Source: a virus. From it: DNA of 64,000 nt. A program made the translations under genes and the position numbers. The first letter of the stretch is position 1. Each line of letters starts with the position of its first letter. Positions 42,541 through 42,584 of this stretch are shown here, one piece after another. The stretch lies in IMG/VR virus record IMGVR_UViG_3300015263_000627. One strand, 5' to 3'. Below the pieces are notes generated by a model. The model did not search any database. It saw only the letters and a program-made list of their open reading frames with translations, and was not told where the DNA came from.

Positions 42541-42584
42541 CACCCGCATTTAGACAATCAGGAGGTGATACAAAAACGCAGGTG
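42541..42584 (-). ncRNA. 3'-UTR hairpin exposing a CCUCC anti-SD loop (sRNA candidate 1)
   Basis: Minus strand CACCTGCGTTT...ATCA-CCTCC-TGAT...AAATGCGGGTG; plus-strand mismatches become G-U pairs on the minus strand. Confidence 0.5.

Follow-up and report, generated by a model that had tools for sequence, protein, structure and literature searches.

The leftward early operon of an uncultured T4-like phage ends in a strand-specific RNA hairpin followed by an intrinsic terminator. The most likely reading of this element, held with middling confidence, is that of a 3'-end stabiliser and terminator closing the operon. It stands mainly as a clean example of early operon closure, in which a strand-specific hairpin is combined with a terminator common to two convergent genes. 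The apical loop of the hairpin displays CCUCC, and the readings that would give this loop a role of its own are weighed below against the evidence that bears on each of them.

The phage is represented by a 181,157-bp IMG/VR virus record with direct terminal repeats and a completeness rating of complete. The window, that is, the whole stretch of 64,000 nt that was analyzed, corresponds to bases 79557–143556 of this record. The genome encodes T4-type proteins (portal, major head protein, tail sheath, DNA polymerase, and RegA), and its major capsid protein is less than 60% identical to that of any isolated phage. The run containing all sampled words of the phage sequence was a marine sediment metagenome. 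Genes are directed rightward up to position 42500, leftward in a short block from 45040 to 42500, and rightward again beyond it; ARAGORN detected no tRNA genes in the 64-kb window. Coordinates of the features considered here are compiled in Table 1.

Table 1. Features of the leftward operon and its surroundings, in window coordinates.
Feature	Position	Strand	Description and source
Hairpin 1	42540–42585	-	12-bp outer stem, two G-U pairs, internal loop, 4-bp inner stem, CCUCC pentaloop
16S-like segment AUCACCUCCU	42560–42569	-	Identical to the 16S rRNA 3' tail; CCUCC 42565–42561 exposed; unique exact match in window and genome
Intrinsic terminator	42498–42535	-	Stem 42535–42508, 10 bp (7 G-C), 8-nt loop, then UUUUUAUUUU; terminator scan, fold, genome-wide terminator census
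67-aa gene, last in leftward early operon	42595–42798	-	ORF list; SD AAGGAGA; stop UAA
Sigma-70-type promoter of the 67-aa gene	42857–42886	-	CTTGACT, 17 nt, TACTAT; TG before -10 box; promoter scan
First promoter of the leftward operon	45011–45040	-	CTTGACT, 17 nt, CATACT; promoter scan
Second hairpin, same operon, loop CGCCUCCUAAAC	44403–44457	-	Between AT-hook-like gene and next gene; CCUCCU loop
Family promoters in window	e.g., 24514, 24707, 25802, 37126, 45893, 51378, 52175	+	
Family promoters in window	e.g., 45040, 42886, 25789, 1299	-	
Convergent gene	42111–42500	+	Stop codon overlaps the terminator U-run of the leftward operon
RegA homologue	41535–42110	+	Pfam PF01818, E 2e-40; just upstream of convergent gene 42111–42500

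Structure and Strand Specificity of the Hairpin

A first, sequence-only reading of this DNA had described a minus-strand stem of 11 bp around ATCA-CCTCC-TGAT at positions 42541–42584. Sequence and fold reproduced this stem at exactly those coordinates, from pair C42584-G42541 to pair U42574-A42551, and added a twelfth pair, U42585-A42540. Two of the pairs are G-U (U42580.G42545 and G42577.U42548). The apical region comprises 22 nt, within which the inner stem A42569-U42557 to A42566-U42560 (AUCA/UGAU) closes the pentaloop C42565-C42561. The hairpin is clearly beyond chance: alone it folded at -18.9 kcal/mol (z -5.9), a stability not attained by any of 200 shuffles. Its plus-strand complement reached -11.5 kcal/mol (z -2.3), a strand asymmetry of 7.4 kcal/mol. 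The weaker plus-strand fold is due to both G-U pairs turning into C-A mismatches, as the sequence-only reading had anticipated. The hairpin is therefore selected as a minus-strand RNA structure. Its fold was kept in the 358-nt whole mRNA, and CCUCC had an unpaired probability of 0.998 whether the tail was folded by itself or within the whole mRNA, with the inner stem predicted to form.

These results bear on the idea that the element is a by-product of the plus strand. Read on that strand, AGGAGGTGAT is a perfect ribosome-binding site, and it might be what remains of a plus-strand gene start that was lost or has gone unrecognized; the same 19-mer is present in the metagenome contigs L133 and L136, where it is the antisense of an SD located 7 nt before an ATG. 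However, no ATG follows the site in the phage. The sole start is a GTG 16 nt downstream, and the 50-aa frame that it opens is antisense to the better-supported 67-aa gene. Since the G-U pairs also point to selection on the minus-strand RNA, we consider such an origin very unlikely.

Terminator and Early Promoters

The presence of a terminator with a U-tract behind the hairpin, also proposed from the letters, was borne out at 42535–42498. Its stem starts 4 nt past the outer stem of the hairpin, its loop is AAUAAACC, and the G+C-rich stem-loop has a U-run (42507–42498) directly behind it, as is required of an intrinsic terminator. The flagged hairpin itself is not an intrinsic terminator, because AAAGUACAGG comes after it. 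According to the terminator census, extra hairpins also precede other strong terminators in the genome, for example that at window coordinate -40058.

The two promoters of the leftward operon belong to a family of about 40 near-identical sites, cTTGAC[AT]-N12-13-TGnTAnnAT, distributed across the 181-kb genome. The same CACGTTTCTTAGTT or an A-rich block is found upstream of several members. By analogy with T4, this family probably represents early promoters used by the host polymerase. Given the early promoters at 45040 and 42886 and the terminator at 42535–42498, all leftward early transcripts should share one tail of about 90 nt with two hairpins. As a separate observation, this set of early promoters is unusually uniform for an uncultured T4-like phage.

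Stem-loops at operon ends protect mRNA from 3' exonucleases, and bidirectional intrinsic terminators occur at convergent genes. The element studied here resembles ordinary operon-end stem-loops in being a stable hairpin placed immediately before a terminator, in its location at a convergent junction, and in belonging to no conserved sequence family. We infer that it most likely works in the same manner. Host RNA polymerase would start at the sigma-70-type promoters 45040 and 42886, and transcription would cross the 67-aa gene and stop at 42535–42498, where the operon and the convergent gene meet end to end. The flagged hairpin would then block 3'-to-5' exonucleases, insulating the coding part and setting the lifetime of the early message, and a decay-resistant tail fragment would be left over. 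The CCUCC of the loop would be incidental, or a secondary feature at most. This reading is favored by the position of the hairpin, 9 nt past a stop codon, 4 nt before the terminator, and at a convergent junction, as well as by the strand asymmetry together with the conservation of the fold in the full mRNA. It is also favored by the early-family nature of both promoters and by the extra hairpins that precede other strong terminators. On the other side, a plain stabiliser has no need of an inner stem presenting a pentaloop; the apical mini-stem with CCUCC and the 10-nt identity to 16S rRNA described below go beyond what an ordinary operon-end stem-loop requires.

The 67-aa Gene Upstream of the Hairpin

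The stop codon of the 67-aa ORF lies 9 nt before the hairpin stem. The encoded protein matched PHROG 35777 (E 1.5e-7) and PHROG 4973 (E 3.5e-6), the function of both of which is unknown. One close homologue (P0001, 92% identical) was found on a 518-nt contig, and HMMER retrieved 24 remote homologues of about 67 aa. Altogether, P0001–P0025 constitute a small unnamed protein family of about 63–93 aa, plus one 484-aa hit, and the residues conserved in it are K9, L10, L14, G30, L41, R42, G45, N51, Y63, and R64. No match to the protein was obtained in a sequence search of the PDB, and DUF1127 did not match it either. Its AF2 model showed a helix-helix-helix-strand-strand arrangement at low confidence (pLDDT 60.7), and a fold assignment based on it was rejected as too weak. 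Because of this low confidence, the protein is here called a putative small winged-helix protein, a label that is plausible. The gene was absent from five long contigs of relatives.

A small regulator gene followed by a C-rich 3'-UTR motif is also the layout of icaR in Staphylococcus aureus, where a C-rich anti-SD motif in the 3' UTR pairs with the 5' UTR (PMC3868564). By analogy, the 3'-UTR loop of the phage could pair with the SD of its own mRNA and limit translation of the 67-aa regulator. The best duplex of the loop with the 5' UTR/initiation region of its own gene, however, was a 4+4 bp pairing with a bulge at -9.3 kcal/mol. This complementarity is weak in comparison with icaR, and it is no better than the mean of about -10 over 235 initiation regions, which was obtained with a slightly longer probe. 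In addition, the whole-mRNA fold leaves the loop free. With own-SD pairing of only this strength, a loop-back of the icaR type is unsupported, and we regard it as highly improbable.

Similarity of the Loop to the 16S rRNA Tail

The identity of part of the hairpin to the anti-SD tail of 16S rRNA, which the sequence-only reading had pointed out, was exact over 10 nt: ATCACCTCCT equals positions 1531–1540 of E. coli 16S rRNA (rrsH 3' end, read from L085), from which the 16S rRNA of the phage host may differ. Together with the full exposure of CCUCC, this identity argues against a purely stabilising function. This exact 10-mer has no second copy in the 181-kb genome, for which about 0.35 occurrences are expected from size alone. 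Caution is needed, as chance can produce a 10-nt match to the 16S tail in a genome of this length.

The similarity extends beyond the 10-mer. ACCUGCG, corresponding to the 3' strand of helix 45, is located 7 nt upstream of it, so that 21 of 24 positions of 16S rRNA are matched with a 2-nt insertion, and no other site in the genome aligns locally with the 16S tail as well as the flagged hairpin does. The early tail RNA might thus copy about the last 24 nt of 16S rRNA (helix 45 3' strand plus tail; ACCUGCG...AUCACCUCCU) and serve as a decoy, either for SDs generally or for a host factor, protein, or nuclease that recognizes the 16S tail. Nevertheless, 21 of 300 block-shuffled genomes contained an alignment with this score (p ~0.07), and ACCUGCG is paired within the outer stem of the phage RNA. 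The combined pattern occurred 47 times in IMG/VR, which is about the number expected by chance in a rough estimate with an assumed size of IMG/VR in bases; nearly all occurrences fell within coding DNA or lay antisense to ribosome-binding sites. The RF00177 model gave no match in the phage. Mimicry of the 16S 3' end, for which the E. coli molecule served as the standard of comparison, therefore appears unlikely.

We also examined how CCTCC is distributed among hairpin loops of the genome. It was found in stable hairpin loops at 2 of 20 non-coding sites versus 35 of 148 coding sites, that is, with no enrichment in non-coding hairpin loops. The two non-coding hairpins both sit in the leftward block, at 42540–42585 and 44403–44457. 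In a rough loop census, about 0.5 such hairpins were expected versus 2 seen; this census is too permissive for a real test, and the loop-count figures are suggestive at best. The second hairpin, whose CCUCCU loop in the same operon speaks against a mere stabiliser at the operon end, folded at -22.0 kcal/mol on the minus strand and at -22.2 kcal/mol on the plus strand. It has no strand preference, since both strands are equally stable, and no U-run or terminator lies behind it. Overall, the anti-SD content of the element is not clearly beyond chance.

Predicted Pairing of the Loop With Initiation Regions

The sequence-only reading had taken the element for an early phage sRNA that represses host translation. 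Its framework stood, namely a minus-strand structure in the 3' UTR of a gene driven by an early promoter, with a terminator behind it; the sRNA part found no support, as the tests run were neutral or negative. In the form considered here, the tail would pair its CCUCC with the SDs of particular phage or host mRNAs and lower their translation, whether it stays on the mRNA or is cleaved off as a 3'-UTR sRNA with the same terminator. After opening of the weak inner stem, the neighboring UGAUUGUCU would take part in the duplex as well. Such a mode of action is also proposed for CcsR/cuckoo RNAs and RNAIII-type C-rich loops. We regard an anti-SD riboregulator of this kind as possible, at low confidence. 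It would be consistent with the exposed CCUCC loop, with the second CCUCCU loop in the same operon, and with the long U-tail of the terminator, typical of Hfq-type sRNAs. The phage also uses SDs to initiate translation: 47% of its starts have SD-like motifs, versus 12% in the background. This same abundance limits the proposal: since about half of the phage genes have SD-like motifs, a generic CCUCC decoy would not tell host from phage messages and would act on both, and the case for repression of host translation is weaker for it.

Predicted pairings were obtained for the apical region against 235 crude initiation regions. The best duplex reached -22 kcal/mol, but shuffled loops equalled it, with values to -21.8 kcal/mol. 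An 11-nt complement, AGACAAUUAGG, covers the SD of the gene at 49352–49050. The 3' half of the loop can pair with the SD region of this gene, UUAGACAAUUAGGAAAAUG (minus strand, initiation region ~49353–49380), over 11 nt, one of the pairs being G-U. By our own estimate, about 0.4 complements of this length are expected by chance. The initiation region of 43489–43040, a gene of the same operon, ranked third of 235. Neither of these two pairings is beyond chance. A sequence-specific role of the loop was thus unsupported in the tests run, which in turn favors the reading of the element as a stabiliser.

Relatives and Variants of the Locus

Searches for RNA families gave no match in the whole window at Rfam gathering scores, and with a threshold of E<=10 the region 42440–42660 returned unrelated chance rows only. 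No cuckoo, AbcR, or C4 family was matched; comparison with the cuckoo families of Rfam had been proposed in the sequence-only reading as a check of the sRNA idea. The absence of an Rfam match counts against the anti-SD riboregulator. By megablast, blastn, and tblastn, no match was found among 50,697 phage records, and neither the 67-aa gene nor the neighbor 42111–42500 had relatives in IMG/VR or JGI metagenomes. The one match of a 149-aa neighbor was to an unrelated high-GC contig and was discarded. A 17-mer searched in IMG/VR and a 19-mer searched in JGI metagenomes yielded chance matches only, in coding DNA or antisense to ribosome-binding sites. An alignment of the remote homologues of the 67-aa protein, used as query, retrieved no loci in IMG/VR or GTDB genomes.

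A further set of 80 loci from distant relatives was fetched via RegA (<=70% identity). None of them contained a CCTCC loop with a terminator, and CCTCC was in no excess over control pentamers. A single-sequence covariance model of the hairpin matched neither these 80 loci nor any other site in the genome. The lack of a copy in either place is a further point against regulation through the loop.

The only related sequences at the locus were near-identical variants in read-derived contigs; those from the runs with small shares of the sampled words were short and had 94–97% identity across the 67-aa gene. The variant of run X2, from another study, had no differences in 42459–42548 and six in 42349–42458. 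This hints that the junction may be constrained at least as much as coding DNA, and such a constraint would favor the stabiliser reading. The variant in run X4 had six differences over 42546–42724, and the four that were listed all fall in the coding part.

RNA-library contigs were available from one soil study. Two of them spanned 42587–42835 and 42589–42737, stopping 2–4 nt before the stem, and the X4 DNA contig of the same variant continues past these stops. The data are assembled contigs of depth 2–3 from a single study, the contig stops are not transcript ends, and the fact that no RNA-library contig covers the hairpin proves nothing. The stops give a weak hint, as they fit either processing immediately 5' to the hairpin or a stable structure that was poorly covered. 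Processing at this place would be in line with a riboregulator released from the 3' UTR and would argue against a plain stabiliser.

Comparison With Known RNA Elements

The nearest analogue in layout is the ccaF1-CcsR1-4 locus of Rhodobacter sphaeroides, in which the gene of a 71-aa protein is followed by 3'-UTR hairpins that are cut out by RNase E (PMC8034643, PMC4615179). In both cases a small-protein gene (for 71 aa in R. sphaeroides and 67 aa in the phage) shares its transcript with one or more downstream hairpins, in whose loops an anti-SD-like pyrimidine motif is displayed, and with a final terminator, a parallel that favors the anti-SD riboregulator (PMC8034643). Cuckoo RNAs consist of 2–4 adjacent hairpins of 24–50 nt, with CCUCCUCCC in each loop and loops of 9–27 nt (PMC4615179). 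In contrast, the phage operon end contains one hairpin, with CCUCCU only, and the second CCUCCU hairpin lies 1.9 kb upstream and is not adjacent. The size of the phage hairpin (46 nt) falls within the range of 24–50 nt; its predicted loop is 5 nt long and would reach 22 nt only if the inner stem opens. The exposure of just five nucleotides in a tight pentaloop, compared with the 9–27 nt of cuckoo loops, is unfavorable to the riboregulator. Other differences are the lack of an Rfam model match, an upstream protein without DUF1127, and the setting itself, a phage here and a cellular stress locus there. Since it lacks the multiple hairpins, the 9-nt motif, and the model match, the element is not a member of the cuckoo/CcsR group, although it could act in a cuckoo-like manner.

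In its location, with a stop codon on one side and an intrinsic terminator plus long U-tail on the other, the element resembles 3'-UTR sRNAs of the CpxQ/SroC type, which use the terminator of the parent mRNA, and may at most be a candidate for this kind. Among lytic phages, the jumbo phage phiKZ makes ncRNAs derived from UTRs (PMC8545117). If the loop of the present hairpin acts on ribosome-binding sites, a lytic T4-like phage would join the few viruses that steer translation by means of an RNA derived from the tail of an mRNA.

Additional Features of the Leftward Block

Two other observations were made in the same block. An unannotated hydrophobic ORF of 24 codons, MANWFYIAGSLCFLIGTAINMYRG, is located at 44267–44341 on the minus strand. 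It is preceded by the SD AGGAAG, its stop lies just before the probable ATG of a 208-aa gene, and it may encode a small membrane peptide or a leader. Finally, in the related phage of run X4, the 202 nt at window positions 43494–43697 are swapped for 21 other letters; the 76-aa ORF 43721–43491 is thus missing in this close relative, which indicates that it is an accessory gene.
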